Positions 4,369 to 27,158 are shown, counted from the first letter of the stretch. The stretch: DNA of 64,000 nt from Pseudomonadales bacterium (GCA_965222065.1 OZ244933.1:1912538-1976537); one strand, 5' to 3'. Notes: a model not told the origin generated them from the sequence alone. Numbers and translations: made by a program.

Positions 4369-4482
4369 GTTTATTGCTCAAACGGTTCCAATCCCAACAC
4401 TGGATGATATAAGTACGCTTGCAGCCCGGGTTATGGTAGAAAACCGGATACCGGATAAAGCTAGAAAAAAGGGTGGTAGTGA

Positions 4483-5979
4483 ATGGACAGCAGCGAGTGT
4501 GTACTGGTTATTGATCAGGGAACAACAAGTAGCCGCGCGATTGTCTTCGATCAAGGCCCTGCCATTGTTGCAATAGCCCAGGAAGAATTCCCCCAGATTT
4601 ATCCAGCGGATGGCCAGGTTGAGCACGACCCCGAAGATATCTGGAGCACAGTCCTTTCTGTGTCGCGGCAGGCCTTCAAAGAGGCTGAGCAGCAAGGGTT
4701 TCGGGTTGTTGCCATAGGTATTTCCAACCAGCGTGAGACCACGGTTGTCTGGGATAGGGCCACAGGTGAGGTCATCTATAACGCGATAGTCTGGCAGGAT
4801 CGCCGCACATCCCGCGTATGTAGTGAACTTAAAGCGCAAAACCTGGAGCCGGTTATACAGGCCAAAACCGGTTTACTGCTTGATCCCTATTTTTCTGCCA
4901 CCAAGGTGTCCTGGATACTGGATCATGTGGAAGGTGCCCGGCAAAAAGCAGAAAAACGGGAACTGGCATTCGGTACGATCGACAGTTTTTTGCTCTGGAG
5001 ACTGACCGGCGGGCAATATCACCGCACCGATGCGACCAATGCGTCGCGCACCAGCCTGTACAACATTCATTCGGGCACCTGGGATAAGGAGTTGCTGGAT
5101 ATTTTCCGCGTTCCGCAAACCCTGTTGCCAGAGGTGCTGGATTGCGATGCGCAATTTGGTGAGACAAGCCAGGAGTTATTTGGGCGCTGCATTCCCATTA
5201 CCGGTATTGCCGGAGATCAACAGGCTGCCGGTATTGGTCAGTGCTGTTTTGACAAAGGCGATATCAAAAGCACTTACGGGACAGGCTGTTTTGTCCTGAT
5301 GAACTCTGGCGATGCCGCGCTGCAATCGCAAAACCGAATGCTGACCACCGTCGCCTATCAGCTTGATGGGAAACCCACTTATGCGATGGAGGGCTCCATC
5401 TTCATGGCCGGGGCGGCGCTTCAGTGGTTGCGTGACGGGTTGGGCATTATTGAGCACGCTGCCGATACCGAGCGTATGTCGGCCAGCCTGGCTGGTAACG
5501 CCGGGGTTTACCTGGTTCCTGCATTTACCGGACTTGGGGTGCCTTATTGGGAGCCCGATGCCAGGGGAGCCATTTTTGGATTGACCAGGGCGACGGGTCC
5601 GGAAGAAATTGTTCGGGCAACACTGGAGTCTATTGGCTATCAAACGGCTGATTTGTTTGCTGCCTTGGCAAGGGACGGGATCTCACCAAAAACCTTGCGA
5701 GTTGATGGAGGCATGGTGGCCAACAACTGGTTTCTGCAATTTTTGGCCGATATTTTGGATACAAAAGTCTGTCGCCCGGCGATTCTGGAAACGACGGCGT
5801 TGGGGGCGGCTTATCTCGCTGGCCACCAAAACGGGTTGTATGGAAGTTTTGAAACGATCAAAAAACGCTGGTGTGCTGAAGCTGAATTCAATCCGGCGTT
5901 AAGTGAGCATGAACGAAAGAGGTTGCTATCCGGCTGGCATGATGCAGTACAGCGGGTTCTTGCTCCACGGGCCGGCTAG
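4483..5979 (+). CDS. glpK: Glycerol kinase
   Basis: 498 aa. N-terminus '[17 protein letters not shown]', '[13 protein letters not shown]', 'WQDRRT' and 'GDQQAA' are all typical FGGY/GlpK motifs. Followed by glpD. Confidence 0.95.
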
Positions 5980-6000
5980 ACTCCCGTTCAAGGTCCTGCC

Positions 6001-7608
6001 ATGAATCTGCGACAAACCAACATTGAAAAACTTAAGCAGGACACGTTTGATGTCCTGGTTTTGGGCGGCGGAATAAATGGTGCCGTGTCGGCTGCCGCGC
6101 TATCGGCAAAGGGTGCCAGGGTGGCCTTGATTGATCGGGGCGACTTTGCCGGAGACACCAGCTCCAACTCGTCAAACCTTGCCTGGGGCGGTATAAAGTA
6201 TCTAGAAAGGCATGAATATTTGCTGGTAAACCGGCTCTGCAAGAGTCGTAACCTTTTGATGCGCAGCTATCCCTCGTCGGTCAGGGAAATCCGCTTTTTG
6301 ACCAGTATTCAAAAAGAATTTCGGTTGTCGCCCTGGTTTGTCTATTTGGGCTGTTTGGCCTACTGGCTGTTGGGCTATCTGCATACAAGAGCACCGAAAT
6401 ACCTGTCGGCCAAAGATTTAAAAAACCGCGAACCCCTTATTGATGCAAGCAATGCAGCGGGTGGGGTCGAGTACTCCGATGCCTATTTCTACGACAATGA
6501 CGCCCGTTTCGTTTTTAATTTTATCCGGACCAGTCTGGACCTCGGCTGTGCGGCGGCCAACTATGTCGAGTCTGTTGAGACGGTCAGGGAAGATGGGCTC
6601 TGGAAGGCGTCGGTCAAAGACCATATTGGCCAGTCGACGTTCAACATAAGTGCCAAGGTGTTGATCAATGCCTGCGGCCCTCATGTAGACCGACAGAACC
6701 AGATGTCTGGTGAGAAAACCAGCCACCGTCACCTGTTTTCCAAAGGGGTGCACCTGATAGTCGATCGCCTTGTGGATCAGCAACGCGTCCTGGCGTTTTT
6801 TGCCAGTGATGGCCGGCTGTTCTTTGTTATACCCATGGGGCCAAAAACCTGTATTGGCACCACAGATAACCAGGTAAAAACACCCTCGGCCGAGGTCACT
6901 GATGAAGACCGCCAATTCATTCTGGACAATGTGAATCACTTTTTGGCCCTGGACGATCCCCTGACCAGGAAAGACATTATCTCTGAGCGTTGTGGGGTCC
7001 GGCCGCTGGCCACCCAGGGTGACAGGGACGTCGCGGACTGGGTCAAATTATCACGAAAGCATGTGATAGAAGTGAATAAGAAGCATCACCACCTGAGCAT
7101 CTTCGGGGGAAAGCTGACGGACTGTATTAATGTCGGCAATGAAATTGCCGAGCATGTCAGTTCACTGGGCCTGGAGCTCTCTCCCAAACGCAATCGCTGG
7201 TATGGCGAGCCGGATAAAAAAATAAAACAGGCATTTTTTCACAGGGCCAGATTGACGGGGCTGGATACCCGGGTGTTGCCCAACACCTCCGAGACCATTG
7301 CCGATCGACTGTGGCGTCGTTATGGGGACAGGGCGATAGACCTGCTTGAGGCGATAGACCGTGACCCGGAACAGGCTGAGCGACTGATTGAGCGCTCCGA
7401 TTTTCTGCGTTGCGAAATTGAGCATGTCGCCAGGCATGAAATGGTGACCAGACTCAATGATTTTTTAAGGCGCCGCTCAAGGATATCCCAGGTGGTGCGA
7501 CATCAGGAGTTGGTTAACTCGCCCGGGCTGCAGAAGGTATGTGAAATTTTGTTCGGGGACCAGGCTGAAGAAAAATTACAGGAATACCTGCATTCCAAGA
7601 ATAGCTAA
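6001..7608 (+). CDS. glpD: FAD-dependent glycerol-3-phosphate dehydrogenase
   Basis: 535 aa. FAD fold 'FDVLVLGGGINGAVSAAALSAKG' and 'GDTSSNSSNLAWGGIKYLE'. Adjacent to glpK. Confidence 0.9.
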   Translation: MNLRQTNIEKLKQDTFDVLVLGGGINGAVSAAALSAKGARVALIDRGDFAGDTSSNSSNLAWGGIKYLERHEYLLVNRLCKSRNLLMRSYPSSVREIRFLTSIQKEFRLSPWFVYLGCLAYWLLGYLHTRAPKYLSAKDLKNREPLIDASNAAGGVEYSDAYFYDNDARFVFNFIRTSLDLGCAAANYVESVETVREDGLWKASVKDHIGQSTFNISAKVLINACGPHVDRQNQMSGEKTSHRHLFSKGVHLIVDRLVDQQRVLAFFASDGRLFFVIPMGPKTCIGTTDNQVKTPSAEVTDEDRQFILDNVNHFLALDDPLTRKDIISERCGVRPLATQGDRDVADWVKLSRKHVIEVNKKHHHLSIFGGKLTDCINVGNEIAEHVSSLGLELSPKRNRWYGEPDKKIKQAFFHRARLTGLDTRVLPNTSETIADRLWRRYGDRAIDLLEAIDRDPEQAERLIERSDFLRCEIEHVARHEMVTRLNDFLRRRSRISQVVRHQELVNSPGLQKVCEILFGDQAEEKLQEYLHSKNS

Positions 7609-7805
7609 TTTTCAGGCCTGAAACTTGGTTTCCAATAGAGAGCCATAGCTACCCTAATATGTTGTGGTTTAGTCTGTTTTACGACCTGTACGCAAGAATA
7701 CTTATCATCGAAAAAAACGAATTTAATGAACGGAATATTCGAATTGATCGATGATTTTTATTGCGTAAAAATCCCGGTAAATGACTAACTAATGATGAGA
7801 GACGC

Positions 7806-8129
7806 ATGAACGCACCTTTATACTGTAAGAGTTCTGCTAAAGAGGATAGCTTTGTAAACGCATTGGATGTTCCCATAATGGATGGGCTATACAGCGCTGA
7901 TGATTCTCGTGAGCCGGTATTAAAGTTGTTAATTGATCTACAGAATTACCATCAGGTGCGCAACTTTAGCCACAGGGAACGGTTTGGTAAGCCAGATCCC
8001 TGGTCGGAAAAAATGCTGGCTAATCTAGCGGAGGCAATTACCAACGCCAAGCAAATTATTGAGGACGCACGCTATAGCGACAGGCCTATTTCAGTAGAGT
8101 CTTCAATCAGGATAAAAATGCCGCAGTGA
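7806..8129 (+). CDS. Hypothetical protein (no recognisable motif)
   Basis: 107-aa ORF in a lower-GC spacer between glpD and the mrp cluster. Supported only by ORF length. Confidence 0.3.
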   Translation: MNAPLYCKSSAKEDSFVNALDVPIMDGLYSADDSREPVLKLLIDLQNYHQVRNFSHRERFGKPDPWSEKMLANLAEAITNAKQIIEDARYSDRPISVESSIRIKMPQ

Positions 8130-8843
8130 TTGTTTTGGTGCAATAGAAATCAGCCAGGAAAAAGGAATCAGAAATTGTATTGCTGTTAAAGATATTCTAA
8201 CCCTGTCATAGGGCAACCAAAAAATAGCGTGAATATACTTCCGCTGAGCGTGCAATACGAACCCTTATGCCCATGATTGTATGCGGCCTACTCGCTATAC
8301 AGAACTTTACTTTGGCGATCCTGTGCTGCTCAAAGAATTAACTATTAATTTCGTCAACGGTCATGGTCAAAGCAGCGATCTAACATAAACATGTTGGCGC
8401 GACATGCTTTGTATGCGTTACCGAAGAAGCACTATCCTTGCGAACCTGAATCAATAACCTTGTTTTTTGACGCGGCACTTACAGCATGCTTTATAAGCGT
8501 GGTTGACCTGCTTGCACTCCCCAGGTTACTTGCTTGATATTGTCTCATCGTTAATAGAATCTAGTGAGATGATCAGTCCAAACGAAAAAATGACGTCTTG
8601 GCTTGAAAGTTTGGTTTTAAAAATCTACGCTCTGTTCGTTCCATCAAGGCTGGCCTATGCGTCGGAAAAAATAATGAATTATTTTCTTTGGTTCCGGAAT
8701 ACTGCCATTATCCATATCGGTGGTGCGCAGGTCTTCATTCTGCGGGTGGTCATATTTACAGTGGTCAATAGTGTCGAAAAATATAATTGGAATGCAGTTG
8801 ATAGCTTGCTTCGCTGCGACTCTTCTCGTGGAAAACTAAAGCA

Positions 8844-9338
8844 ATGGTAACCAAATACACTTCGACGCCAAGACAGTTATTCGGCGCTTTTATCGTTTTG
8901 ATGGTTAGCTGGCTCCTGTGGTCTGGGCTTTACAAGCCGTTGTTGATAGGTTTGGGTTTTTTCTCTTGTCTTTTGAGTCTCTGGTTAGCGAGGAGAACCG
9001 GCTTTTTCCGTCACGCCATGAAACTTTCTGCGCTGTTACGACTACCTGCTCTGTGGTGTTGGATACTGAAAGAGGTGGTAGCGTCCAGTATTGAGGTAGC
9101 ACGAATTGTGCTGTCACCATCGCTGCCAATCCAGCCCGAATTAGTTGAGCTCCCCAGCGCTGAAAAAGCTGATTCTGCCAAGGTGATTCTCGGTAATTCC
9201 ATCACGCTATCGCCAGGCACAGTCACTATTGATATTAATGAAGATCGTTTGCTGGTGCATTGTTTGTCCGCCAGCAGCGCTGCTTCACTTCGCAGTGGCG
9301 AAGTTGAGCGCCGTGTTGCCCGCCTGAAGATCAACTAA
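8844..9338 (+). CDS. mrpE: Mrp/Mnh-type cation:proton antiporter subunit E
   Basis: 164 aa with two N-terminal TM helices. 'LGNSITLSPGTVTIDINEDRLLVHCL' matches the MnhE signature. First gene of a tightly packed or overlapping cluster. Confidence 0.8.
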   Translation: MVTKYTSTPRQLFGAFIVLMVSWLLWSGLYKPLLIGLGFFSCLLSLWLARRTGFFRHAMKLSALLRLPALWCWILKEVVASSIEVARIVLSPSLPIQPELVELPSAEKADSAKVILGNSITLSPGTVTIDINEDRLLVHCLSASSAASLRSGEVERRVARLKIN

Positions 9339-9340
9339 TT

Positions 9341-9601
9341 ATGTATCTTGTAGTCTCCCTGGCAATCCTGATGACTATGGTGCTGGCATTGGCCCGTGCG
9401 CTGAGAGGTCCCACCATTTATGATAGGGTTTTGGCGGTCAATCTCTTTGGCACCAAAACCGCGTTACTGCTTTCAGTGCTTGCTTTCCTTAATAATCGCC
9501 CCGATTTTCTTGACCTGGCTTTGGCCTATGCCCTGATTAATCTGGTGGGTATTTTTGCAGTGCTGCAATTCATTCAGATGAAATTTCGAAAGCCTGACTA
9601 G
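9341..9601 (+). CDS. mrpF: Mrp/Mnh antiporter subunit F
   Basis: 86 aa, three hydrophobic helices. 'LRGPTIYDRVLAVNLFGTK' matches the MnhF motif. Confidence 0.8.
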   Translation: MYLVVSLAILMTMVLALARALRGPTIYDRVLAVNLFGTKTALLLSVLAFLNNRPDFLDLALAYALINLVGIFAVLQFIQMKFRKPD

Positions 9602-9611
9602 GCGTAGGTAT

Positions 9612-9962
9612 ATGGTTGATACGGTACTGGATATTCTCAGCTGGATTCTGCTTTGTACGGGCGGTGCTTTTGTGTTGATTGGTGGAATCGGCGCGTTACG
9701 CCTCCCTAATTTTTACACTCGCCTGCATGCCGCCAGCCTGACTGAGACCATGGCGAGCATCCTGATTTTTACCGGCATAGTCTTGCAGGCGGGCTTTACA
9801 CTTGCGGCTTTAAAACTGGGCGCTATCATGGTCTTCCTTCTCCTTACTGCGCCCACAGCCAGCTACGCGCTGGGTAATGCAGCGTTGCTGTCGGGCATGC
9901 GGCCCGATGCTCAGCTAAACGTGCAGCAAGGCTTGCAAAGACGGGAGGAAAGCGACTCATGA
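9612..9962 (+). CDS. mrpG: Mrp/Mnh antiporter subunit G
   Basis: 116 aa. 'GGIGALRLPNFYTRLHAASLTET' is the MnhG/PhaG signature. Confidence 0.85.
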   Translation: MVDTVLDILSWILLCTGGAFVLIGGIGALRLPNFYTRLHAASLTETMASILIFTGIVLQAGFTLAALKLGAIMVFLLLTAPTASYALGNAALLSGMRPDAQLNVQQGLQRREESDS

Positions 9963-10933
9963 TTATTGTTTTCGCTTTGTTCCTGCTGTCATTGCTGGTG
10001 GTTTCGGCACTGGCGATCGTACATACGGAGAACCTTTTTGTTGCAGTGATGCTAACCTCTATTTTTAGTCTGCTGATGGCCGCTAATTTTTTTATCCTCG
10101 ACGCAGCGGACGTTGCACTGACCGAGGCAGCTGTAGGGGCGGGTATAACGACAGTTATCTTCCTCTCAGCCCTGGCGCTGACCACTGAACGCGAGAAGGC
10201 GTATAAATCCAGTCAACGCTTGGCTATGGTTGTCGTAGCGGTACTAGGTAGTTTGATTATCTACGCTACCTTCGACAAACCTCGTTTGGGCGATCCTGAT
10301 GCGCCCGTTCATCAACATGTGGCGCCATGGTATCTGGAAAACACCCCAGTCTATATGGATTTCCCTAATGTGGTGACGGCCATACTAGGCAGTTTTCGAG
10401 GCTACGATACGTTGGGTGAAGTGTTCGTGGTGTTCGCCGCCTGTATTGGCGTGCTATTTATTCTCGGCGTCAAGCCGCCGCAAGGCAGTATGTATGATCC
10501 GGAGGCTTCGGGTTTACGGCATCACCTTATCCCGCAAATGGTGGGACGTCTTTTAATACCCTTTATCGTATTGTTTGGCCTGTACGTGCAGTTTCATGGT
10601 GAATATGGTCCGGGCGGCGGGTTTCAGGCAGGAGCGCTGATTGCCTCTGGAGTTATCCTCTATGCCTTACTGGAGGGCGAGGCCGCTGCACTTCGAGTAT
10701 TGCCCCAGCATGTACTCATGGGCCTGACGATAGGCGGTGCCACCTTGTACGGTGGGGTAGGCGTCGTATCTATGCTGCTAGGTGGAAATTTCCTCGAGTA
10801 TTCCGTGCTTCTTGCTGACCCGGTTAGTGGGCAGCAAATCGGTATCCTGTTGATAGAAGCTGGTGTTGGCATGGCCGTTTGCGGCGCCTTGCTTAGTATC
10901 TTTCATGCGTTTGCATCAAGGCCAGTGAAATAA
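9959..10933 (+). CDS. mrpB: Fused MrpA-C-terminal (DUF4040/MbhD-like) + MrpB (MnhB) membrane subunit
   Basis: 324 aa. N-terminal part 'FILDAADVALTEAAVGAGITTVIFL' is DUF4040-like. C-terminal part 'YVQFHGEYGPGGGFQAGALIASG' is MnhB-like. Start overlaps the mrpG stop. Confidence 0.75.
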   Translation: MIIVFALFLLSLLVVSALAIVHTENLFVAVMLTSIFSLLMAANFFILDAADVALTEAAVGAGITTVIFLSALALTTEREKAYKSSQRLAMVVVAVLGSLIIYATFDKPRLGDPDAPVHQHVAPWYLENTPVYMDFPNVVTAILGSFRGYDTLGEVFVVFAACIGVLFILGVKPPQGSMYDPEASGLRHHLIPQMVGRLLIPFIVLFGLYVQFHGEYGPGGGFQAGALIASGVILYALLEGEAAALRVLPQHVLMGLTIGGATLYGGVGVVSMLLGGNFLEYSVLLADPVSGQQIGILLIEAGVGMAVCGALLSIFHAFASRPVK

Positions 10934-11292
10934 TGAATTTGTTCGATTTGCTTGGTTTCTTTAACTACTGGGTGTTCGCGATTGTGCTCACAGTAGGGTT
11001 GTACACTGTGATTGCAAAAGCCAATCTGATAAAAAAGTTGATTGGATTGTCGATTTTTCAATCTGCTGTGTTTCTTATGTACATCACTATGGACAAGGTA
11101 GAAGGGGGGACCGCGCCGATCATTCAGAAAGGAGTAGAAAACCAGGTTTTTTCTAACCCACTACCTCAGGTGCTAATTCTTACTGCTATCGTAGTAGGCG
11201 TTTCCACGCTCGCTCTGGGGTTGGCAATAGTCGTTCGCATTTACGAAACTTACGGCACCATCGAAGACGACGAAATACTGGGCTTGGACTGA
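10933..11292 (+). CDS. mrpC: Mrp antiporter subunit C (NuoK-like)
   Basis: 119 aa, three TM helices. 'LIKKLIGLSIFQSAVFLMYI' and 'LPQVLILTAIVVGVSTLALGLAIV' are typical of MnhC/NuoK. Confidence 0.8.
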   Translation: MNLFDLLGFFNYWVFAIVLTVGLYTVIAKANLIKKLIGLSIFQSAVFLMYITMDKVEGGTAPIIQKGVENQVFSNPLPQVLILTAIVVGVSTLALGLAIVVRIYETYGTIEDDEILGLD

Positions 11293-11296
11293 TTGC

Positions 11297-12784
11297 ATGG
11301 ATTTGACTTCCCATTTGCCTGCACTTCAGGTCATAGTGCCGATGCTATGTTCTCCGTTAATTCTGCTGCTGAAACCGCGGGGCCTGGCTTGGGCTGGAGC
11401 TACTTTGGTAGCTCTTTGCAGCTTTGCTATTGCAGTAAATATGGCCTTTGCTGTTGTTGGCGGAAAGGAATTCAGCTACGACATGGGCGGTTGGGAAGCG
11501 CCCTACGGTATCGCCCTGTCGGTAGATGCATTTAGTGCACTGGTGCTACTGATAGTTAACGGTGCTGCAACTATGGCATTGCTTGCAGCCCGGCCTAGTA
11601 TTGATCAGCAGATTGAACAGGAACGCCAGCCACTATTTTATTCTGCGTTTTTACTGGCCCTTGCCGGTCTTACCGGTATTGTGGTTTCTGCAGATGCCTT
11701 CAATATTTTTGTCTTCATGGAGATATCCTCGCTGGCCAGCTATGTTCTAGTAGCTGGAGGCCCTGACCGACGCGCTTTATCTGCGGTGTTTAAATATCTG
11801 ATCATGGGAACGATTGGTGCCACCTTCTACCTGATTGGGGTGGGCATGATCTATATGATGACCGGCACGCTCAATCTGGCAGATATGGAAGCGCGAATTG
11901 GCGGAGTTACTGATATCAACCCGATCCTGGCAGCGGCGGGCTTTATCACCGTTGGCCTGGCTCTCAAGGCCGCCGTGTTTCCGTTACACGTTTGGTTACC
12001 CAATGCCTATTCCCAAGCACCGCACATCGTCACTGTATTCCTTGCCTCCTGTGCGACCAAGGTGGCGATTTATGTGCTTATACGTTTTGATTTCTTTGTG
12101 TTTCAGGCCAATCTCGATGCGCACGACCTGCAATTTTCAACCTTCTTGATGCCCCTGGCTATAGTCGGCATTCTTGTGCCCTCTGCCGTGGCGATTTTTG
12201 AAGGGCACATTAAGCGGCTGCTGGCCATGTCTTCTGTGGCTCAGATTGGCTACATTATTCTGGGGGCCAGTTTTGTTACGACAGTGGGACTGACCGCTTC
12301 GGCAACTCACATGTTTAACCATGCTCTCGCGAAGGGAGGGTTGTTTTTGGCTATTGCCGGGCTGGCTTGCCATTATCGCGACCTGCGTCTGGATCAGCTC
12401 GCCGGTGCTGCCCGCACAATGCCCTGGACGGCAGCGGCCGTAGTAATTTGCGGTCTTAGCCTGGTGGGTGTTCCGGGTACGGCCGGCTTTATCAGTAAGT
12501 GGCTGCTTATTGATGCAGCCGTGGAAAAGGGAGGCTTCTCCTGGTTACTGGTTGTCATTATCCTCGTTAGCTCGCTGATGGCACTGGCTTATGTTAGCCG
12601 CATCATCGGGACTTTATACTTCAAACCGGCGGTAGTTTCCCAAGCCCCCCGCGAAGCACCTATACAACTGCTTCTTGTCACTGGACTGGTGGCGCTGGCC
12701 AATATTGTCTTTGGGCTTTTCCCCTCATTTCCGCTGGCTTTGTCAAGTAATGCGGCTGAATTACTGTTGGGACACATTCTGTGA
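11297..12784 (+). CDS. mrpD: Mrp antiporter subunit D (NuoM/N-like proton-conducting subunit), copy 1
   Basis: 495-aa polytopic protein. 'FMEISSLASYVLV', 'HVWLPNAYSQAPHIVTVFLA' and 'KRLLAMSSVAQIGYI' are motifs of the Proton_antipo_M family. Confidence 0.85.
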   Translation: MDLTSHLPALQVIVPMLCSPLILLLKPRGLAWAGATLVALCSFAIAVNMAFAVVGGKEFSYDMGGWEAPYGIALSVDAFSALVLLIVNGAATMALLAARPSIDQQIEQERQPLFYSAFLLALAGLTGIVVSADAFNIFVFMEISSLASYVLVAGGPDRRALSAVFKYLIMGTIGATFYLIGVGMIYMMTGTLNLADMEARIGGVTDINPILAAAGFITVGLALKAAVFPLHVWLPNAYSQAPHIVTVFLASCATKVAIYVLIRFDFFVFQANLDAHDLQFSTFLMPLAIVGILVPSAVAIFEGHIKRLLAMSSVAQIGYIILGASFVTTVGLTASATHMFNHALAKGGLFLAIAGLACHYRDLRLDQLAGAARTMPWTAAAVVICGLSLVGVPGTAGFISKWLLIDAAVEKGGFSWLLVVIILVSSLMALAYVSRIIGTLYFKPAVVSQAPREAPIQLLLVTGLVALANIVFGLFPSFPLALSSNAAELLLGHIL

Positions 12785-14250
12785 ACGCTGATAACACCAT
12801 CATCCTGGCCATCCTGGTGCCACTGATTACAGCAGCGGGTATTCAACTGGCAGGTCGTGTGTCGGATAACTTGCGAGAAAGTGTGACACTGCTCGGTGCT
12901 GCCGCGCTGGCATGGGTTGTTTGGGGCATGCTGCCAGAGATATTCAGCGGCGAACAACCGGGCTGGACAGCCGGTGACTTGCTGCCGGGAATAGCACTGG
13001 CATTTAAAGTGGAACCACTTGGCATGTTGTTCGCTGCCCTGGCTTCTGGACTTTGGATCATCAATTCAATTTACAGTATTGGTTACATGCGCGGCAATAA
13101 TGAAAAAAATCAGACGCGCTTTTATACCTGTTTTGCACTGTCGCTTGCGGCGACCATGGGCATTGCTTTTGCCGGTAATCTGCTCACCTTGTTCCTGTTT
13201 TATGAAATGTTGACGCTTTCGACGTTCCCATTGGTATCTCACAAAGGGGATGAATCCACCGTTCGTTCAGCGCGGGTATATCTGGGAATTTTGCTCTTTA
13301 CGTCAATCGGGCTTTTACTTCCCGCCATTATCTGGACCTATCACATTGCCGGCACAGGTGATTTCACGACCGGAGGAATACTTGAGGGCAAGGCTTCCGG
13401 GCCTGTTATCGGCTTACTATTGGCACTGTATTTGTTTGGTGTTGGTAAAGCGGCGGTGATGCCGGTTCACCGCTGGCTGCCTGCGGCGATGGTAGCACCT
13501 ACCCCGGTAAGTGCATTGTTGCACGCGGTCGCGGTCGTTAAAGCTGGTGTGTTTGCCGTGACCAAAATAATTGTCTATATCTTTGGCGTCGATTTCCTGT
13601 TTAGCTCTGGCAGCGCAGGATGGTTGGTCTACGTCGCGGCATTTACGATTATTGCTGCCAGTGTGGTGGCAATGTACCAGACTAACTTAAAGCGACTGCT
13701 AGCCTATTCGACGGTTGCGCAGTTGTCTTATGTGGTGATGGCCGCTGCCGTGCTGAAACCGCTTGCGGAGATCGGTGCAGCAATTCACATGGTGGCGCAT
13801 GCCTTTGGTAAAATTACCTTGTTCTTTGCTGCTGGTGCAATTTATACCGCCTCCAAAAAAACTGAATTGTATCAGTTGCGGGGTATCGGTCGACGCATGC
13901 CCTGGACAATGGCTGCTTTCACAATTGGCGCGCTCAGCATGATTGGTGTGCCGCCCACGGGCGGGTTTGTGTCCAAGTGGTACATTCTGGCTGGCTCTTT
14001 TCAGGCAGACAACTTCCTGGCAATTTTTACCATCATCGCCAGTACGGTGCTAAACGCAGCATACTTTCTACCAATTATTTTTATGGCCTGGCTTGTCGAT
14101 GAACCTTCCGGGGGAAAGGAGCACGGTGAGGCGCCGCCGCTGGTCGTACTTGCGCTTTGCCTTACGGCCTTAATGACCCTGGGATTCTTTTTCTTCAACG
14201 GACCAGTGATCGAACTGGAACAACAGCTGGTTAAGGGGATGCTGCCATGA
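12781..14250 (+). CDS. Mrp antiporter subunit D-like (NuoM/N-like), copy 2
   Basis: 489 aa. 'FYEMLTLSTFPLV', 'HRWLPAAMVAPTPVSALLHAVAVVKAG' and 'KRLLAYSTVAQLSYV'. Overlaps the preceding gene by 4 nt. Confidence 0.85.
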   Translation: MNADNTIILAILVPLITAAGIQLAGRVSDNLRESVTLLGAAALAWVVWGMLPEIFSGEQPGWTAGDLLPGIALAFKVEPLGMLFAALASGLWIINSIYSIGYMRGNNEKNQTRFYTCFALSLAATMGIAFAGNLLTLFLFYEMLTLSTFPLVSHKGDESTVRSARVYLGILLFTSIGLLLPAIIWTYHIAGTGDFTTGGILEGKASGPVIGLLLALYLFGVGKAAVMPVHRWLPAAMVAPTPVSALLHAVAVVKAGVFAVTKIIVYIFGVDFLFSSGSAGWLVYVAAFTIIAASVVAMYQTNLKRLLAYSTVAQLSYVVMAAAVLKPLAEIGAAIHMVAHAFGKITLFFAAGAIYTASKKTELYQLRGIGRRMPWTMAAFTIGALSMIGVPPTGGFVSKWYILAGSFQADNFLAIFTIIASTVLNAAYFLPIIFMAWLVDEPSGGKEHGEAPPLVVLALCLTALMTLGFFFFNGPVIELEQQLVKGMLP

Positions 14251-14516
14251 AGGAGCATGAAAAGAAGCATTGGTTGTACCAGGCTGCGACAGTGAGAAAA
14301 CTTTGGTGGGTGTTTTCTACTGTATTGGCACTAACGGTTTTTGTGCAATTAGTGGTGCACATAAAAGGTTACTTCACGGTTGATGGTTGGTTTGGATTTG
14401 GTGCTGTGTACGGTTTTCTTAGCTGCTTGCTAATGGTGTTATTCGCTAAGGTGCTGGGTGTATTTCTGAAGCGCCCTAACAACTATTATTCTGCGGAGCG
14501 AGACGACGATGATTAA
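14247..14516 (+). CDS. Small two-TM membrane protein embedded in the mrp cluster
   Basis: 89 aa with two hydrophobic helices and an acidic tail 'ERDDDD'. Start overlaps the upstream stop (ATGA). Its end overlaps the next start by 8 nt, which implies co-translation with the cluster. Confidence 0.55.
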   Translation: MKEHEKKHWLYQAATVRKLWWVFSTVLALTVFVQLVVHIKGYFTVDGWFGFGAVYGFLSCLLMVLFAKVLGVFLKRPNNYYSAERDDDD

Positions 14517-16215
14517 TCTCATCTCACCCGCTCTGATTATGGTGGTGGCGGCCCTGGCCATTGGTTTGGCTCGGGGGCACTTGCGTACAGCCATTGTGCT
14601 GTTGGCCCCTGTGCTGACATTGTGGGCTGTTTGGCAAGTGCCTGATGGTGTGCAGGACACAGTGCGTTTTCTGTCCTACCAGATCGAACCTGTGGAGGGC
14701 AGTCCCCTAAGGCGTTTGTTTGCGACAATTTTTGTGCTGATGGCGTTTGTTGGGGGGCTTTTTGCATTCCGCCTGGCGAAATGGTACGAGTTAGCCGCTG
14801 CCTTTTTTTATGCCGCTGGTGCCATCGGAGTGAGCTTTGCTGGCGACCTGATTTCGTTGTTTGTTTATTGGGAACTGATGGCGTTATTTTCCACAGTAGT
14901 AGTTTGGTGTGGCGGTACGGCTGCTTCTCGTGCGGCTGGCATCCGTTACGCTATTCTGCATTTGCTAGGCGGTGTGGTGCTTAAGGTCGGTATCGAAGGT
15001 GTCGTGGTCAGTACCGGTTCCATACAAATCACCCCCATGCTGGCGGAAGATTTTAATAGTTGGATGATACTTTGCGGCATCCTTATCAACGCTGCGGCTC
15101 CCCCCCTGTCTGCCTGGCTGGCGGATGCTTATCCTGAATCGAGCCCGACCGGTTCGGTATTTCTTTCCGCTTTTACCACCAAGACTGCGGTATTGGCTTT
15201 GATTCTGCTGTTCCCGGGAGAGAAGGTATTGATTGGTATTGGGCTGTTTATGGTGATGTACGGAATTATCTATGCGCTCTTGGAAAACGATATTCGCCGT
15301 ATTCTGGCCTATTCGGTGGTCAATCAGGTTGGCTTTATGGTCTGCGCAGTCGGTATTGGTACGCAGCTGGCGATAAATGGTGCCACAGCCCACGCCTTTG
15401 CTCATATTGTTTACAAGGCGCTGCTGTTCATGAGCGCTGGTGTAGTGATTTACCGTACCGGTAAAAACCGCTGTACTGAGCTAGGTGGTCTGTTTCAATC
15501 CATGCCAATAACGACTATCTGCTGCATTATTGGCGCACTGTCCATTTCCAGCTTCCCCCTTACATCGGGTTTTACAACCAAGAGCCTAATTTCCCAAGCG
15601 GCAGCGAACAATGGACTTATGTGGGTATATATGCTCCTCACAGCAGCGTCCGCAGGTGTTTTCTTGCATGCGGGAATTAAATTTCCCTGGTTTGTATTTT
15701 TTCAGAAAGACTCAGGCCTGCGTCCGAAAGATGCACCCTGGAATATGGCGCTTGCCATGATTATCTTCTCAGTAATTTGTTTGCTGTTGGGTATGTTCCC
15801 TGAATGGCTTTACCGTTTCTTGCCCTATGAGATGGACTATCAGGCATACACCGCCGGCAAGGTTGTGTTCTATTTGCAGTTATTGCTTTTCTCCGGGCTA
15901 GCCTTTTTCTTGTTCTTGCCGTTAATGAAGCGCACTGAAACAATTAGTCTGGATGTTGATTGGTTATGGCGTGTAGCTGCGCCCGCGTTAGTACGACATT
16001 TGGCTAGGGCAATAGCACCTCTGAAAAAACTTGGATTGAGGCTGGATTCAGTTAGTCGAAATTTGCTAAACCACCTGACATCCCGTTATTTTGGACAGCC
16101 TCAAATCATGGACCGAAAGGAGCGTGCTCTATTTGCGCGTTCCTGGCCAATCGGCACCACCGCGCTCTGGATAGCTATCCTGCTATCGGTATACGTTTTG
16201 CTTTACTATATCTGA
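14509..16215 (+). CDS. mrpA: NuoL/MrpA-N-terminal-like antiporter subunit with C-terminal lateral-helix-plus-anchor extension
   Basis: 568 aa. 'YWELMALFS', 'LADAYPESSPTGSVFLSAFTTK' and 'RRILAYSVVNQVGFM'. The last ~95 aa are a long amphipathic stretch ('WLWRVAAPALVRHLARAIAPLKKLGLRLDSV...') ending in one TM helix ('TTALWIAILLSVYVLLYYI'), as in NuoL/MrpA. Confidence 0.75.
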   Translation: MINLISPALIMVVAALAIGLARGHLRTAIVLLAPVLTLWAVWQVPDGVQDTVRFLSYQIEPVEGSPLRRLFATIFVLMAFVGGLFAFRLAKWYELAAAFFYAAGAIGVSFAGDLISLFVYWELMALFSTVVVWCGGTAASRAAGIRYAILHLLGGVVLKVGIEGVVVSTGSIQITPMLAEDFNSWMILCGILINAAAPPLSAWLADAYPESSPTGSVFLSAFTTKTAVLALILLFPGEKVLIGIGLFMVMYGIIYALLENDIRRILAYSVVNQVGFMVCAVGIGTQLAINGATAHAFAHIVYKALLFMSAGVVIYRTGKNRCTELGGLFQSMPITTICCIIGALSISSFPLTSGFTTKSLISQAAANNGLMWVYMLLTAASAGVFLHAGIKFPWFVFFQKDSGLRPKDAPWNMALAMIIFSVICLLLGMFPEWLYRFLPYEMDYQAYTAGKVVFYLQLLLFSGLAFFLFLPLMKRTETISLDVDWLWRVAAPALVRHLARAIAPLKKLGLRLDSVSRNLLNHLTSRYFGQPQIMDRKERALFARSWPIGTTALWIAILLSVYVLLYYI

Positions 16216-16262
16216 TGCTCTTGATAGAACAGGTTTAGGTAACAAATTGAACTTGTGAAATT

Positions 16263-16281
16263 TGGTGCCCAGGAGAGGACT
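16263..16281. repeat. Distal att repeat (copy of the tRNA-Leu 3' end)
   Basis: 19/19 identity with 27159-27177. Sequences diverge immediately on both sides. Confidence 0.85.
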
Positions 16282-16413
16282 GGGCAAATGGCAACCCTTA
16301 AAAATGATTTTTCTAAGCACCTAAGGTGTTGATTCTAAATGAAATGGTAGCATTGGGCGGATGTGCTACCAATTCAATAAAACAAAGGCTTTCCGAAGCA
16401 TCTAGATACTAAA

Positions 16414-16433
16414 TAGTAGCAGTTTTAGTAGCA
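16414..16433 (+). repeat. Two TAGTAGCA repeats 12 bp apart (putative integrase arm-type sites, distal end)
   Basis: TAGTAGCA at 16414-16421 and 16426-16433. The same octamer recurs with the same 12-bp phasing at 27054-27061 and 27066-27073, plus TGTAGCA at 27043-27049, at the integrase end. Confidence 0.5.
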
Positions 16434-16583
16434 GAACTGTTGGCGGGTAGTTTTGCATCAAAGATTAAGTCAATAGATTAGATAAGAAATTATTTTAGAG
16501 AAAGAACAAATCAGCCGAAGAGTATTTATTAATTATTTAAGAAAGCATAAAAAATACTTTTCTATTTTGAATTTCAAAACGAA

Positions 16584-16596
16584 TTGCAAATTGCAA
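16584..16596 (+). promoter_or_regulatory. LuxO-type enhancer-binding-protein box TTGCA-AAT-TGCAA
   Basis: TTGCAAATTGCAA is a perfect match to the TTGCA-W3-TGCAA palindrome reported for Vibrio LuxO at qrr promoters. It lies ~63 bp upstream of a sigma-54-like element and ~116 bp upstream of the first island ORF. A LuxO-like activator is encoded in the same operon. Confidence 0.5.
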
Positions 16597-16658
16597 ATTT
16601 ATAGATTCTCCAGCCCACAAAAATTTATAACCCATTGAAATTTATGTGTTTTTCGTTT

Positions 16659-16674
16659 TGGCATGCTATTTGTA
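16659..16674 (+). promoter_or_regulatory. Candidate sigma-54 (-24/-12) promoter TGGCAT-N5-TTGTA
   Basis: TGGCATGCTATTTGTA compared with consensus TGGCAC-N5-TTGCW. The GG is correctly placed. The -12 element reads TTGT rather than TTGC. It lies 38 nt upstream of the ATG at 16712, with a GAGGG RBS in between. Confidence 0.4.
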
Positions 16675-16711
16675 TAAGTGACGTGCAAATTAGCCAATTG
16701 AGGGAAATACA

Positions 16712-17089
16712 ATGAATCTTTCTTTGCACCAAATTGAAAACACTTTTGATAAAAGGCTGCCGTCGGAAAATAACCCAAACAGCTTGTTGCTTGTAAATTT
16801 GTCAAAAATTAACAGAGGCGTTTCAAGTTCCTTTTGTAACTTGGTGGTTATTGATGCCAGTGAGCCGGATGCCGCCTCCCGCGCGCTTTCGGTAATCCTG
16901 CCAATCTATAAAATCGCTGGGCAAAAAAAGTTTTTGCTAGTGATCAATGGGGTTCGCAATACTCTTCAGGGCCCTTCAATTTTCAAGCAAATATTAGAGC
17001 TTGTATCTTACTTGCCGGATATATCTCTTAACTATCTAGGCGATACACCTTCCAGAAAATATCTTTCTGAATTACTTATAGAAAATTAA
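16712..17089 (+). CDS. Hypothetical protein, first gene of the island operon
   Basis: 125 aa with a good RBS (GAGGG 8 nt upstream). 'VVIDASEPD...LLVINGVRN...LNYLGDTP' faintly recalls the C-terminal half of MinD/ParA ATPases, but there is no Walker A motif. Confidence 0.5.
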   Translation: MNLSLHQIENTFDKRLPSENNPNSLLLVNLSKINRGVSSSFCNLVVIDASEPDAASRALSVILPIYKIAGQKKFLLVINGVRNTLQGPSIFKQILELVSYLPDISLNYLGDTPSRKYLSELLIEN

Positions 17090-17129
17090 AACGGCTTCTG
17101 GTTTTCATAAAAATAGGGCGAAAAAGAAG

Positions 17130-17813
17130 ATGAAAAATATCATTTTCTTGATGGGCTTGGCACTTTCATCTGGATGTTCCTACTATCCTTCCACCCTCGG
17201 GCCAGTTCATCCCACTCCCGCGGGGGAATTCATCAAGTGTATAAGCGAAGAGACGCATCACTTGCCAACCTGTTATTGCAATGAATACGCAGTTAAAGCT
17301 AACCCCGAAAGAGAAAAAGTTTGTTTTGCTGCAGAGCGGTCAGATTTAAAAATTCTGGCTAGTGAAACTATTTCAAAAGAAGACTGGTTATTTGATTTCC
17401 GCGTAGAAACCGCCAAGCTAGAAAAATACGAGCCTGATGTAAATGAGTTCTGGTCCAATAATACCTTGGATTATTTGCAAGGTAACGAATTCACCGATGA
17501 TTGTGATGGGCTTGACAGCATACTGGATGTCCTTTTCTTGTTAGGTGAGTTTAGGCTGGAACAGTTGGCGAAAATACTTATGCAAGTTACAGATAATAAT
17601 CCAGAAACACCTAGATATCATTATGTCGCAGCTGTGTGGGTTGCCGGTGATTGGCTAATTTTGGATCAATCCTCTGCGGCACCATTATATCTGTCTAAGA
17701 TCACTGCCTATGGCTCAGCCCCACTCACTGTTTTAGCGCACCGTCGTCTTAATGACAGGAAATGGCGAGAGGGCTTGCCGCCTAATGTGCGTACGTTAGC
17801 TGGATACTGGTAA
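17130..17813 (+). CDS. Lipoprotein, putative transglutaminase-like cysteine peptidase (BTLCP/LapG-like)
   Basis: 227 aa with lipobox 'LALSSGC'. 'DDCDGLDSILDVLFLLG' followed by 'HYVAAVWVAGDWLILDQ' fits the BTLCP Cys...His-x15-Asp arrangement (family pattern GDCEDYA ... HaVL...lvLDN). Confidence 0.45.
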   Translation: MKNIIFLMGLALSSGCSYYPSTLGPVHPTPAGEFIKCISEETHHLPTCYCNEYAVKANPEREKVCFAAERSDLKILASETISKEDWLFDFRVETAKLEKYEPDVNEFWSNNTLDYLQGNEFTDDCDGLDSILDVLFLLGEFRLEQLAKILMQVTDNNPETPRYHYVAAVWVAGDWLILDQSSAAPLYLSKITAYGSAPLTVLAHRRLNDRKWREGLPPNVRTLAGYW

Positions 17814-17820
17814 AGCTGCT

Positions 17821-19221
17821 ATGCAAAAGGCCATTAAAGATTATGTCCCATCAGTCTTGGTTGTCGAAGATAGTATTTCGGCGGCTCGGCTTTATGAAAT
17901 TCATCTTCAGGCGATGGGCCTGGAAGTAGAAGTGGCCAATACTTCAAGAGAGGCAATTTTTCTTTGCCAGACAAAGAGCTTTGACTTGGTCTTTTTAGAC
18001 GTTGAGTTACCGGATGGCTCGGGCCTTGATATTGCAGATCAGCTTAGTGGGATAAATACCAGAGTAATTGTTATTACTGCGCTTGATACCGCGCAAATAG
18101 CGATTGAGGCTATGAAAAAAGGTGTTTTTGAGTTTTTGGTTAAACCGGTTGATGAGACTCGAATCAAGGCAGTTGTTAAACAAGCGTTGGGTGATATCAA
18201 AACAACTGCCAGCGTTAAGAGTCAAAAAGTAATAGGTGCGTCTGACGCTATTCAGGTCGTGTATCGAATGATTGATGCGGCTGCGAAAAGTGATGTATCG
18301 ATATTTATTACAGGAGAAAGTGGAACTGGAAAAGAGCTGGCAGCCATCGCAATACACGAACAAAGCGCAAAAGCAAATGAAACGTTCCATGCAATAAATT
18401 GCGCGGCAATTCCTGATGAATTAATGGAAAGTGAAATTTTTGGCCATAAAAAGGGAGCTTTTTCAGGTGCACATTTCGATAGAAACGGCGCGGCAAGTAT
18501 AGCGGATAAAGGCACGCTCTTTCTTGATGAAATTTGTGAGATGAGTCTTGATGTTCAGAAAAAGATGCTGCGCTTTCTGCAAACTGGCGAATATCAAAAA
18601 GTAGGGAGCGATTCCAAAGAACAAGCAGATGTGCGAATAATCTGCGCTACAAATAAAAATCCATTGGATGAGGTTCAGGCCGGAAGGTTTCGGCTGGATC
18701 TCTACTACCGGCTTCATGTCATTCCAATTCACTTACCTCCTTTGAGGGAGCGTAAAGGTGATATCAAATTAATCGCGGATTATTTCTTATACAAATATTC
18801 AAGGCAGGAAAATAAAAATTTCAAAGCTTTTTCGGAGGAAGCCTATGAGCAGTTATTTACATACTCCTGGCCTGGAAATATTCGTGAGTTACAGAATGTC
18901 ATACAGAACATTGTTGTTTTAAATAATGGAACAGAGGTGCAGGCAAATATGCTTCCTGTTTTATTCAAGGATGTCGGCGCAATCGGTTCAGGACAATCCC
19001 CAGTCGATACCGCAGTAACAAGGTCAGAGATAAATTTGGCCAACTTGGAACCCAATAGTGAAATGTTTGGGGATGGAAAAATTTTGCCCTTACGTGCTGC
19101 TGAAAAAATTCTTATTAATCAGGCAGTAGATTTATGTGAAGGGAATATTCCCTTGGCTGCTGCCAAACTCGGGCTTGCCCCGTCGACCTTGTACAGAAAG
19201 CTAGCATCAGAGAAACAATAA
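17821..19221 (+). CDS. Sigma-54-dependent response regulator (receiver + AAA+ + Fis-type HTH), LuxO/NtrC-like
   Basis: 466 aa. Receiver 'VLVVEDS...DLVFLDVELPDGSG'. Walker A 'GESGTGKE'. Sigma-54 contact loop 'GAFSGA'. 'RIICATN', 'FRLDLYYRL' and 'WPGNIRELQN'. C-terminal HTH 'AAAKLGLAPSTLYRKL'. Confidence 0.92.
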   Translation: MQKAIKDYVPSVLVVEDSISAARLYEIHLQAMGLEVEVANTSREAIFLCQTKSFDLVFLDVELPDGSGLDIADQLSGINTRVIVITALDTAQIAIEAMKKGVFEFLVKPVDETRIKAVVKQALGDIKTTASVKSQKVIGASDAIQVVYRMIDAAAKSDVSIFITGESGTGKELAAIAIHEQSAKANETFHAINCAAIPDELMESEIFGHKKGAFSGAHFDRNGAASIADKGTLFLDEICEMSLDVQKKMLRFLQTGEYQKVGSDSKEQADVRIICATNKNPLDEVQAGRFRLDLYYRLHVIPIHLPPLRERKGDIKLIADYFLYKYSRQENKNFKAFSEEAYEQLFTYSWPGNIRELQNVIQNIVVLNNGTEVQANMLPVLFKDVGAIGSGQSPVDTAVTRSEINLANLEPNSEMFGDGKILPLRAAEKILINQAVDLCEGNIPLAAAKLGLAPSTLYRKLASEKQ

Positions 19222-19796
19222 TGTATGGCCTAGTAAATAAAGCGATAAAGGACATGATACTTGAGAGATATGGAGAGACTATTTGGGATCAGACACTGGA
19301 AGAATCAGGTTTAGATATAGATTGTTTTATAAGCATGAATCAATACAACGATTCATATACATACGCACTTGTAGCCGCAGCATCAAAAACTTTGAAAATG
19401 CCGGGGAACGACTTTTTAGAAGATTTAGGCCACTATTGGTCTACGGTTACTGGCCCTAAAAGTTATAAAACATTGATGGACCTAACTGGTAAAGATCTTA
19501 TTAGTTTTTTAAGTAACTTAAATACACTTCATGAGCGAATTACCTCTACCTTTGTTGGTTACACGCCGCCCTACTTTAAAGTATTTCCTGATGAGGATGG
19601 TTTTATTGTCAGATACCAAAGCAAGCGTGAAGGACTACTGCATTTTGTTATTGGACTAATACAAGGTCTTGCTGACTCTTTCGCACAAAAAATAAAAATA
19701 GCTGAAGTTAACCAATGTGCTTCTAAGTCAGGTGAGACATGGCTAATAAAAGTTTTAATAGCCAATAATAATCAACAATCTTTCAGGCCATCATAA
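19221..19796 (+). CDS. hnoX: H-NOX (heme nitric oxide/oxygen-binding) sensor protein
   Basis: 191 aa starting 'MYGLVNKAIKDMI'. Proximal His104 ('NTLHERI'). Pro116/117 ('TPPYF'). Y-x-S-x-R heme-propionate motif 'YQSKR' (Y132/S134/R136). Start overlaps the stop of the upstream gene. Confidence 0.9.
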   Translation: MYGLVNKAIKDMILERYGETIWDQTLEESGLDIDCFISMNQYNDSYTYALVAAASKTLKMPGNDFLEDLGHYWSTVTGPKSYKTLMDLTGKDLISFLSNLNTLHERITSTFVGYTPPYFKVFPDEDGFIVRYQSKREGLLHFVIGLIQGLADSFAQKIKIAEVNQCASKSGETWLIKVLIANNNQQSFRPS

Positions 19797-19798
19797 AA

Positions 19799-21376: not shown

Positions 21377-21390
21377 GGTATGAATTTTCT

Positions 21391-21750
21391 ATGTACGATG
21401 AACCAGAACTTTTTTCAGAAAGTATTTCCAGGAAGTTCATCAATGATTTTGGTTTTGTGAAATATCTTTCTTTGATTGAGTTATTTTTACTTGAATTGGA
21501 AGAAAAAACTGAAAGCATAGAAAAAGCAATGGATGATGAAAATATGGACGGTGTTAGAAAAATTGCTCATTCATTAATCGCTTCATCTAAAGCTGTTGGA
21601 ATGATTCAGCTTTCAAAAAAATTTCAAGATATACAAGAAGTCGCAGGGATTGGTAATGCAAGTCAAACTTATAACGAAATACGCGAAATGCTATTTTTAA
21701 AAGATGAGTCTTTAAATGAGTTGCATAATTTCTTGGCGACTCAAAAGTGA
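21391..21750 (+). CDS. Histidine phosphotransfer (Hpt) protein
   Basis: 119 aa, helical. 'VRKIAHSLIASSKAVGMIQL' matches the Hpt 'HxLKGSSxxxG' motif. Lies 14 nt downstream of the hybrid kinase. Confidence 0.75.
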   Translation: MYDEPELFSESISRKFINDFGFVKYLSLIELFLLELEEKTESIEKAMDDENMDGVRKIAHSLIASSKAVGMIQLSKKFQDIQEVAGIGNASQTYNEIREMLFLKDESLNELHNFLATQK

Positions 21751-21767
21751 TAGGGGTTTGCCCCTAT
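21750..21767 (+). terminator. Hairpin directly after the Hpt stop codon (possible operon terminator)
   Basis: ATAGGGG-TTTG-CCCCTAT, a 7-bp perfect stem. No downstream T-run, so intrinsic-terminator status is uncertain. Confidence 0.3.
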
Positions 21768-22017
21768 CCAGTAGCGATGTTTGTTAATTCAAGCGTTTCA
21801 ACAAAATCAATACTAGAAGTTGGAAATATCTATCTGCATGGTTTTTTGCAGCATGTTTAAAATTTTGCTGTTTTATATCTATCCTTGAACATCGTCTATG
21901 TATTTCGTTTCTAATTTTCTATAGGCATATTTCAAATAGCTTTTTTATTTTTTACCTTTTTGGCAAAGACGAAAGGCTAAAAGCTTTGAAGAGGGTTATT
22001 AATATTAGTTTCTTTTG

Positions 22018-22131: not shown

Positions 22132-22149
22132 TATCTATCGGGAGCCCTT

Positions 22150-25354: not shown

Positions 25355-25370
25355 TGTAATTCCCTTGTTT

Positions 25371-27074: not shown

Positions 27075-27158
27075 ACCTCATATCGATAATGATGAGTTTG
27101 CTCAGAAAATCAATAAGGTACTGACTTATAAGAGGATTCTTTGTCAGTGGAATTGCTA

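Follow-up and report, generated by a model that had tools for sequence, protein, structure and literature searches.

A nine-gene Group 3 mrp operon with three antiporter-like subunits in a Pseudomonadales bacterium

Multi-subunit cation/proton antiporters of the Mrp type (CPA3) are assigned to Group 3 when they lack a full-length mrpA, carry one or several mrpD genes and follow an irregular gene order (Ito et al. 2017, PMC5703873; Haja et al. 2021, PMC8415708). Examples range from mrpEFGBB'CD in P. furiosus to mrpFGBCDDAE in Microbacterium and mrpCD1D2EFGAB in Aphanothece (PMC5703873, PMC8415708), and in Nitrospira a Group 3 cluster continues beyond mrpD with two additional genes, NuoM-like and NuoL-like (PMC7784846). 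A published correspondence equates the archaeal subunits MbhA, MbhB and MbhC with MrpE, MrpF and MrpG, MbhD plus MbhE with the C-terminal part of MrpA (MrpA-C), and MbhF, MbhG and MbhH with MrpB, MrpC and MrpD (PMC7419157). Here we analyse a 64,000-nucleotide (nt) stretch of a 2.5-Mb metagenome-derived contig from a Pseudomonadales bacterium (GCA_965222065.1, OZ244933.1:1912538-1976537; hereafter the window), which carries a nine-gene operon in the order E-F-G-AcB-C-D1-D2-X-D3, where AcB is a fusion of MrpA-C with MrpB, D1 to D3 are antiporter-like subunits, and X is a small conserved protein. With no full-length mrpA, three mrpD-like genes and an order unlike mrpA-G, the operon belongs to the recognised Group 3 class and is not a new kind of system.

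Operon structure and relation to described Mrp systems

That these genes form a multi-subunit operon is confirmed. Nine co-directional open reading frames (ORFs) on the plus strand fill positions 8844-16215 with nearly no intergenic space, as seen in an ORF scan with translations, and the source contig's public annotation has the same nine genes. Adjoining ORFs abut or overlap by 1-8 nt at G/AcB, AcB/C, D1/D2, D2/X and X/D3, and the stop/start codon overlaps at these five junctions suggest translational coupling. Every gene but X is matched by Pfam and NCBIfam models and also by PDB chains, as in an Mrp (CPA3) system, and the scores are far beyond chance (Table 1). The order opens with E-F-G, three of the genes encode Proton_antipo_M domains, and D3 is the longest ORF. 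Among the smaller subunits, MrpG exceeds the cut-off of TIGR01300 (76 bits against 63.1), and MrpC falls right at that of NF005621 (126.2 bits against 126).

Table 1. The nine genes of the operon, with positions in the window and family and structure matches
Gene	Description	Length (aa, amino acids)	Position	Strand	Matches
mrpE		164	8844-9338	+	Pfam MNHE 3e-30; PDB MbsA 6u8y_A 4e-14, MrpE 7qru_E 5e-13
mrpF	contains GPTIYDRVLAVN	86	9341-9601	+	Pfam MrpF_PhaF 1e-13; PDB best MbsB 6u8y_B 3e-9
mrpG		116	9612-9962	+	Pfam PhaG_MnhG_YufB 5e-22; PDB best MbsC 7e-11
AcB	fusion of MrpA C-terminal domain and MrpB	324	9959-10933	+	Pfam MbhD 2e-17, MbhE 8e-8, MnhB 1e-24
mrpC	NuoK-like	119	10933-11292	+	Pfam Oxidored_q2 2e-24; PDB best MbsG 5e-24
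D1	antiporter-like subunit, MrpD/MbsH/NuoN type	495	11297-12784	+	Pfam Proton_antipo_M 9e-58
D2	antiporter-like subunit, MrpA-N/NuoL-type core; GTG start	489	12781-14250	+	Proton_antipo_N and Proton_antipo_M 4e-57
X	membrane protein, two hydrophobic helices	89	14247-14516	+	no family match
D3	antiporter-like subunit	568	14509-16215	+	Proton_antipo_M 2e-41; NCBIfam NF009310

By sequence, the best solved-structure match of each assignable subunit is a chain from P. furiosus, in every case from its MBS complex (6u8y) except for D2, which best matches MbhH. Given the published Mbh-Mrp correspondence, the order in the window maps one-to-one on the Mrp-like membrane module of Mbh and MBS, so that the first-pass annotation, which had likened the gene order to the membrane module of archaeal Mbh/Mbx complexes, is borne out on this point. 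P. furiosus MBS pairs with the operon at D1 (like MbsH) and D3 (like MbsH'), but it has just two antiporter-like subunits and comes with the MbsM/J/K/L/N redox module, whereas in the window D2 and X stand between the equivalents of H and H'. The stand-alone Mrp of P. furiosus (mrpEFGBB'CD) shares the lack of a full-length mrpA, the E-F-G, B'/B, C, D order and the absence of a redox module; it differs in having a single MrpD after C and separate B' and B, where the window has a fusion protein, three antiporter-like subunits and X. The Group 1 and Group 2 systems of B. pseudofirmus (7qru), Anoxybacillus flavithermus (6z16) and Dietzia (7d3u) are built of the same functional parts, and their MrpA is nearest to our D3 model, but they have a single MrpA of ~800-960 aa in an mrpA(B)CDEFG order and two antiporter-like subunits, whereas the window spreads MrpA over three genes and has three such subunits.

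Cyanobacterial Group 3 systems (Aphanothece halophytica; Synechocystis slr2006-2013, with NdhD5 and NdhD6) likewise have several MrpD-like genes and small A and B genes, and the Aphanothece order is a circular permutation of E-F-G-A-B-C-D-D, with two D genes reported as against three here; complementation has shown Na+/H+ antiport for Aphanothece (PMC5703873). In the Synechocystis cluster, slr2008 is a small hypothetical ORF. Ehrlichia chaffeensis resembles the window by annotation, with F, G, DUF4040, B, C, E and a set of three D-like proteins, 489-519 aa long (PMC8395091), but its genes are scattered over six loci; tested singly, they complemented an antiporter-deficient E. coli (PMC8395091).

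Division of MrpA and the three antiporter-like subunits

Canonical MrpA is effectively split three ways in this operon, its core type lying in D2, its lateral helix and anchor on D3, and its C-terminal part joined to MrpB, an arrangement (A-C fused to B, core and lateral helix on separate proteins) that sets the operon apart from Group 1 and Group 2. The first-pass annotation had proposed both a split MrpA and the composition of the 324-aa fusion, and its domain assignment stands. Within the fusion, MbhD-like (residues 12-75), MbhE-like (116-181) and MrpB (191-312) segments follow one another in the Pfam order MbhD-MbhE-MnhB, and the protein scores 403 bits against the NCBIfam equivalog NF009161 (PRK12507), whose curated cut-off is 272. 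Its best PDB match is MbsE (3e-17), with further matches to MbsD, MbhD, MbhE, MbhF and MrpB, and it can be aligned to residues 606-908 of the Dietzia MrpA/B fusion; because of these matches and this alignment we identify it as MrpA-C (MbhD+MbhE) plus MrpB. Homologues of the fusion number more than 4800 among 8000 scored candidates, and the 120 that were listed, 78-100% identical and from Halieaceae, Mangrovimicrobium, Seongchinamella, Shewanella, Oleispira and Oceanicoccus, are all of similar length with MbhD and MnhB, nearly all having MbhE too.

The antiporter-like subunits, for which we found no mrpD1/D2/D3 nomenclature in the literature, fall into three clades of a simple Kimura-distance neighbour-joining (NJ) tree. 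D1 is most similar among PDB sequences to MbsH (2e-60), followed by MrpD (7qru_D, 1e-49) and MbhH (3e-49), and the D1 sequences form their own clade with 74% support. The Sphingobium MrpD ORF in the tree is misaligned, without transmembrane helix 7 (TM7), and was disregarded, so that D1 is linked to canonical MrpD through its PDB scores.

D2 is of another type. Its best PDB match is MbhH (6cfw_H, 1.5e-40), and NdhF, NuoL, ND5 and MrpA come next; in the alignment its TM8 motif PVSALLHAVAVVKAG bears His and Lys as in MrpA, a pair specific to MrpA where NuoL keeps the His alone (Steiner and Sazanov, PMC7419157), and the NJ tree joins its clade to the pair of E. coli NuoL and Sphingobium MrpA, with a bootstrap support of 76%. 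On account of the Proton_antipo_N domain, the L-type PDB matches, the TM8 His and Lys and the position in the tree, D2 is by sequence of MrpA-N type; it ends after the 14-helix core, without C-terminal extension or lateral helix. By sequence, the MrpA-N/NuoL-type core is thus the 489-aa D2 and not the 568-aa D3. The first-pass annotation had described two MrpD-like genes followed by a NuoL-like subunit taken for the N-terminal part of MrpA; the MrpD label suits D1 but not D2, and the lateral helix and terminal TM anchor ascribed to D3 are supported by its architecture and model, whereas the orthology to the MrpA N-terminus passes to D2.

D3 forms its own clade with 99% support and scores 673 bits against the NCBIfam equivalog NF009310 (PRK12668; curated cut-off 564). 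Its best PDB sequence match is MbsH' (6u8y_X, 4e-34), the MBS subunit that bears helix HL and TMH15-16 (PMC8165549), and its sequence places it in a separate clade nearest to MbsH' of the archaeal MBS complex. The TM8 of D3 is of the MrpD/NuoM/N kind. Beyond TM14 the protein continues with TM15 (449-473) and ends with TM16 (547-567); the ~60 residues between TM15 and TM16 are predicted to be mostly helical and partly amphipathic and contain the predicted lateral amphipathic helix (~484-542). An AlphaFold2 model of D3 has a mean predicted local distance difference test score (pLDDT) of 83.7, with a confident core and a C-terminal region below 60. Foldseek searches with this model place MrpA first (7qru_A, TMq 0.80), followed by 6z16_A, NuoL, NdhF, HycC and MbsH', over 600-670 aligned columns, while MrpD-type chains align to the core only. 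The model is thus like MrpA and NuoL from end to end, the part beyond TM14 included, and D3 has an L-like (NuoL/MrpA-like) C-terminal architecture.

Of the conserved charged residues of the proton path, D1 and D2 align with the full set of Glu-TM5, Lys-TM7, Lys-TM8 and Lys-TM12, to which D2 adds the TM8 His, and D3 is complete but for Lys-TM7; it retains Glu122 (Glu-TM5), Lys225 (Lys-TM8), the His/His/Lys of TM11 and Lys358 (Lys-TM12).

Distribution of the layout and kinship with complex I

The first-pass annotation, which called the layout non-canonical, overstated how unusual it is. Relatives of D3 occur in at least 588 species genomes, as counted by a pattern scan that was built on an 11-sequence D3 alignment and took one genome per species, and all 80 loci fetched from among these genomes (L002-L081), mostly named Gamma- or Alphaproteobacteria, have the order E-F-G-AcB-C-D1-D2-X-D3 as far as the contig extends (tblastn). 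The named loci are nearly all environmental, mostly marine and soil Proteobacteria. D3 alone has relatives in 805 clusters at 50% identity (E<=1e-30), the best 150 all above 320 bits and mostly of similar length, and a profile search gave at least 8000 matches. Both the fusion and D3 pass the equivalog cut-offs of NF009161 and NF009310, and are thus already catalogued in NCBIfam. The layout is therefore not rare: Group 3 mrp operons nearly identical to this one number in the thousands and are named by NCBI family models. As to whether it would prove a common, already characterised Mrp subtype, as the first-pass annotation had allowed, it is common and catalogued, but we found no direct biochemical characterisation, and our searches of the literature and the PDB returned neither a transport assay nor a structure, a stoichiometry or other biochemical work on the subtype with three antiporter-like subunits and X.

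X has no Pfam or NCBIfam match but is conserved. Each of the 80 related loci has it at the same place, after D2 and before D3, with 42-74% identity; it has 573 homologues in the database and carries the conserved motif HWLxRP...G.F..D.W..F.A..GF..C..MV..AK.LG..LKR...YY.

More distant relatives have the B gene unfused. Operons of the form E-F-G-[MbhD+MbhE]-[MnhB]-C-D-D-x-D accompany distant D3 homologues in two metagenome contigs (L082, L084), and a plasmid of Halostagnicola larsenii (NZ_CP007058.1, positions 3312-11605; L088) carries E-F-G-DUF4040-MnhB-C-D1-D2-D3. In view of such versions, the fused B'/B is a variant, confined to a lineage, of a ten-gene design that is old and widespread. The Halostagnicola MrpE is 343 aa and its D2 623 aa long, and no separate X gene is annotated there; the possibility that this D2 is a D2+X fusion was rejected, the tail being an acidic linker dissimilar to X.

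The last three genes also occur outside mrp operons. Among plasmids, D2 has its best matches (50% identity) on megaplasmids of Sinorhizobium, Ensifer and Rhizobium, and on S. meliloti pSymA (CP140953.1, positions 7107-14299; L086) the order is nuoJ-nuoK, a D2-like protein of 487 aa (50% identical), an X-like protein of 84 aa, a D3-like protein of 586 aa, and nuoM-nuoN-nuoA. In the NJ tree the two large proteins group within the clades of D2 and D3, respectively, and the D3-like one likewise has Asn at the position of Lys-TM7. The X-like protein has the C-terminal motif of X, with 43% identity over 35 residues (E=5e-6, pairwise); its ORF is annotated only as hypothetical. This second complex I operon, with the trio in the place of nuoL, is that of the green type of complex I, in which two MrpD-like subunits replace NuoL and the second bears helix HL (Degli Esposti and Martinez-Romero 2016, as described in PMC9040806). 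There (see also Yu et al. 2022) the trio lies inside an NADH dehydrogenase operon, whereas in the window it lies in an mrp operon with MrpE/F/G and no nuo genes: the trio is homologous, but mrpC stands upstream and non-nuo genes downstream, so the operon is not itself a green complex I. The occurrence of D2-X-D3 in both Group 3 Mrp and the four-pump complex I indicates that the trio behaves as one module, one that stands in for NuoL in the rhizobial four-pump complex I.

Proposed function, alternatives and genomic surroundings

We propose, with a probability of roughly 0.8, that the product of the operon is a cation/proton antiporter of Group 3 Mrp (CPA3) type that stands alone, is assembled from nine membrane proteins, is driven by the proton-motive force (pmf) and has three antiporter-like subunits. 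Each canonical Mrp subunit function is present in one tightly coupled operon. The first-pass annotation had noted that no hydrogenase or oxidoreductase gene is adjacent, and this extends to the whole window, where neither NuoH/MbhM nor NuoB/C/D, hydrogenase or formate dehydrogenase was found among the 30 larger ORFs screened, and to the flanking ORFs of the 80 syntenic loci, whose clustering revealed no recurrent redox module and only one recurrent neighbour, a Rap1a-like gene. Since no conserved redox partner lies nearby, a stand-alone, pmf-driven antiporter is the best reading; what energises the complex, which had seemed unclear to the first-pass annotation, has an ordinary explanation, as stand-alone Mrp complexes are secondary antiporters driven by proton- or sodium-motive force. 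A role in Na+/H+ exchange has been shown for the Group 3 relatives of Aphanothece (mrpCD1D2EFGAB) and P. furiosus (stand-alone mrpEFGBB'CD) (PMC5703873, PMC8415708).

In the mechanism that we envisage, MrpE, MrpF, MrpG, the A-C+B fusion and MrpC would form the module that translocates Na+ (or K+), and D1, D2 and D3 a proton-conducting arm. D1 would sit beside MrpC and A-C, as MrpD, MbsH and NuoN do in solved complexes, with D2 next and D3 distal, its lateral helix and terminal TM extending back along the arm and clamping it as in NuoL, MrpA and MbsH', while X may be a small accessory subunit of the D2-D3 pair. Protons would pass inward through the antiporter-like subunits and the cation outward through the E/F/G/B/C/A-C module, although the machine might also run in reverse on a Na+ gradient. 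Its physiological role would presumably be Na+ and pH homeostasis in a marine gammaproteobacterium. We infer from the genes the single nine-protein complex, the spatial order D1-D2-D3, the ion, the direction, and any change in H+/cation ratio that three such subunits would bring compared with two.

Several observations weigh against this proposal. Some Mrp systems carry K+ or Ca2+ and not Na+ (PMC5703873). The lateral-helix region of the D3 model has a pLDDT of 38-60. The NJ tree is crude; the phylogenetic comparison that the first-pass annotation suggested separates D1, D2 and D3 and places D2 beside NuoL and MrpA, but the placement of D3 relative to the other clades has only 37% support. Finally, D3 departs from the canonical proton-path set in that Lys-TM7, elsewhere nearly universal in antiporter-like subunits, is replaced by Asn194 and the next His by Ser201, and with Lys-TM7 lost D3 could be partly structural or work differently.

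The last point leads to the alternative that fares best, which we nevertheless consider unlikely, namely that D3 and X are structural and non-transporting, with a clamping role for D3 and an assembly role for X, and that the complex is a two-pump Mrp like the canonical one. The replacement of Lys-TM7 and its neighbouring His by Asn and Ser speaks for it, and this loss is derived and widespread. In a sample of the window protein and 46 database representatives (35-51% identical to it), the TM7 position is Asn in 23 of the 47 sequences, Lys in 16 and His in three, and Shewanella, Haliea, Iodidimonas, Halostagnicola and the S. meliloti pSymA homologue share the Asn form, counts and a spread that point to a loss that is derived, old and tolerated. 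The remainder of the path argues the other way, as Glu-TM5, Lys-TM8, the TM11 His/His/Lys and Lys-TM12 are kept and are invariant or nearly so among close relatives, and the D3-like subunit of rhizobial complex I, proposed to add a pumping site (PMC9040806), keeps the same Asn.

It is also rather improbable that this Group 3 Mrp chiefly interconverts sodium-motive and proton-motive force in vivo, taking Na+ in and moving H+ out, or that it transports K+ or Ca2+ instead of extruding Na+. The stand-alone Group 3 Mrp of P. furiosus has been proposed to take up Na+ while H+ is pumped out (PMC8415708), many of the named loci are from marine taxa, where the inward Na+ gradient is large, and for other ions there are the K+ role of S. 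meliloti Pha1 and the Ca2+ role of the T. roseum Mrp (PMC5703873); most characterised bacterial Mrp systems, however, extrude Na+ (PMC5703873), and sequence discriminates neither direction nor ion. It is very improbable that the nine proteins make up the membrane part of a pump driven by redox chemistry, of the MBH, MBS, Mbx, FHL or complex I type, with a peripheral module encoded elsewhere in the genome: by sequence, the best solved-structure matches are all chains of redox-driven archaeal complexes, MBS or (for D2) MBH, and the D2-X-D3 trio lies between nuoK and nuoM in the complex I operon of S. meliloti pSymA, but the NuoH/MbhM-like anchor and the NuoB/D-like subunits that such a pump needs are missing from the operon and the window and do not recur in the 80 flanks, no NiFe-hydrogenase-like or Fe-S subunit accompanies the operon in the window either, the named loci are mostly from marine and soil Proteobacteria, and P. 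furiosus has a stand-alone Mrp, its genes likewise ordered E-F-G-B-B'-C-D, that functions with no redox partner (PMC8415708).

Returning to the stand-alone antiporter, we tentatively extend the proposal to a redox-independent machine whose three-subunit arm is clamped by the lateral helix of D3, with X as a previously undescribed two-helix subunit, and whose D2-X-D3 trio was later transplanted in place of NuoL in green complex I; this wider scenario is possible, though we would rate it somewhat below even. If it is true, the operon would encode the counterpart of an entire membrane arm of complex I, standing on its own, with a distal subunit that lacks Lys-TM7. If three subunits raise the H+/Na+ ratio, this would fit the frequency of the system in marine and saline Proteobacteria and its presence in a haloarchaeon. 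The value of the operon as a structural and mechanistic target lies in its three antiporter-like subunits, which bear on how the H+/cation ratio in the superfamily depends on their number, in the unannotated but conserved X, in the role of the distal subunit without Lys-TM7, and in the module shared with green complex I.

As for the surroundings, a TonB-dependent receptor gene, glpK and glpD lie upstream of the operon. The recurrent neighbour in the flanks of the 80 loci encodes a secreted, Cys-containing protein of 150-190 aa on the same strand and directly upstream of mrpE, found in 29 loci by ORF clustering and in ~32 by tblastn, with a Rap1a-like domain (PF18602, 3e-11). In the window, frameshifted remnants of this gene lie at about 8130-8470, with 'AERAIRTLMP', 'ELYFGDPVLLKEL' and 'KKHYPCEP' in three frames, so that here it is apparently a pseudogene. 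Between glpD and these remnants is a 107-aa ORF (7806-8129) with no family match, of which the public annotation has an 83-aa version. Just downstream of the remnants, a 115-aa ORF with a TTG start (8503-8850), overlapping the start of mrpE, was rejected as spurious, as it has no family match and is not called in the public annotation. A promoter and terminator scan yielded nothing above shuffled sequences, its sole candidate being a 9-of-12 match at 8755-8782.

Directly downstream of the operon, from ~16200 to 27100, the guanine plus cytosine content is 36-40%, against about 50-54% elsewhere. This stretch encodes two proteins without family, a sigma-54 response regulator, an H-NOX protein, a hybrid histidine kinase with an HNOBA domain, an Hpt protein and a resolvase, and on the minus strand a 567-aa DUF6538 protein; it looks like an integrated island with a signalling module that senses nitric oxide.

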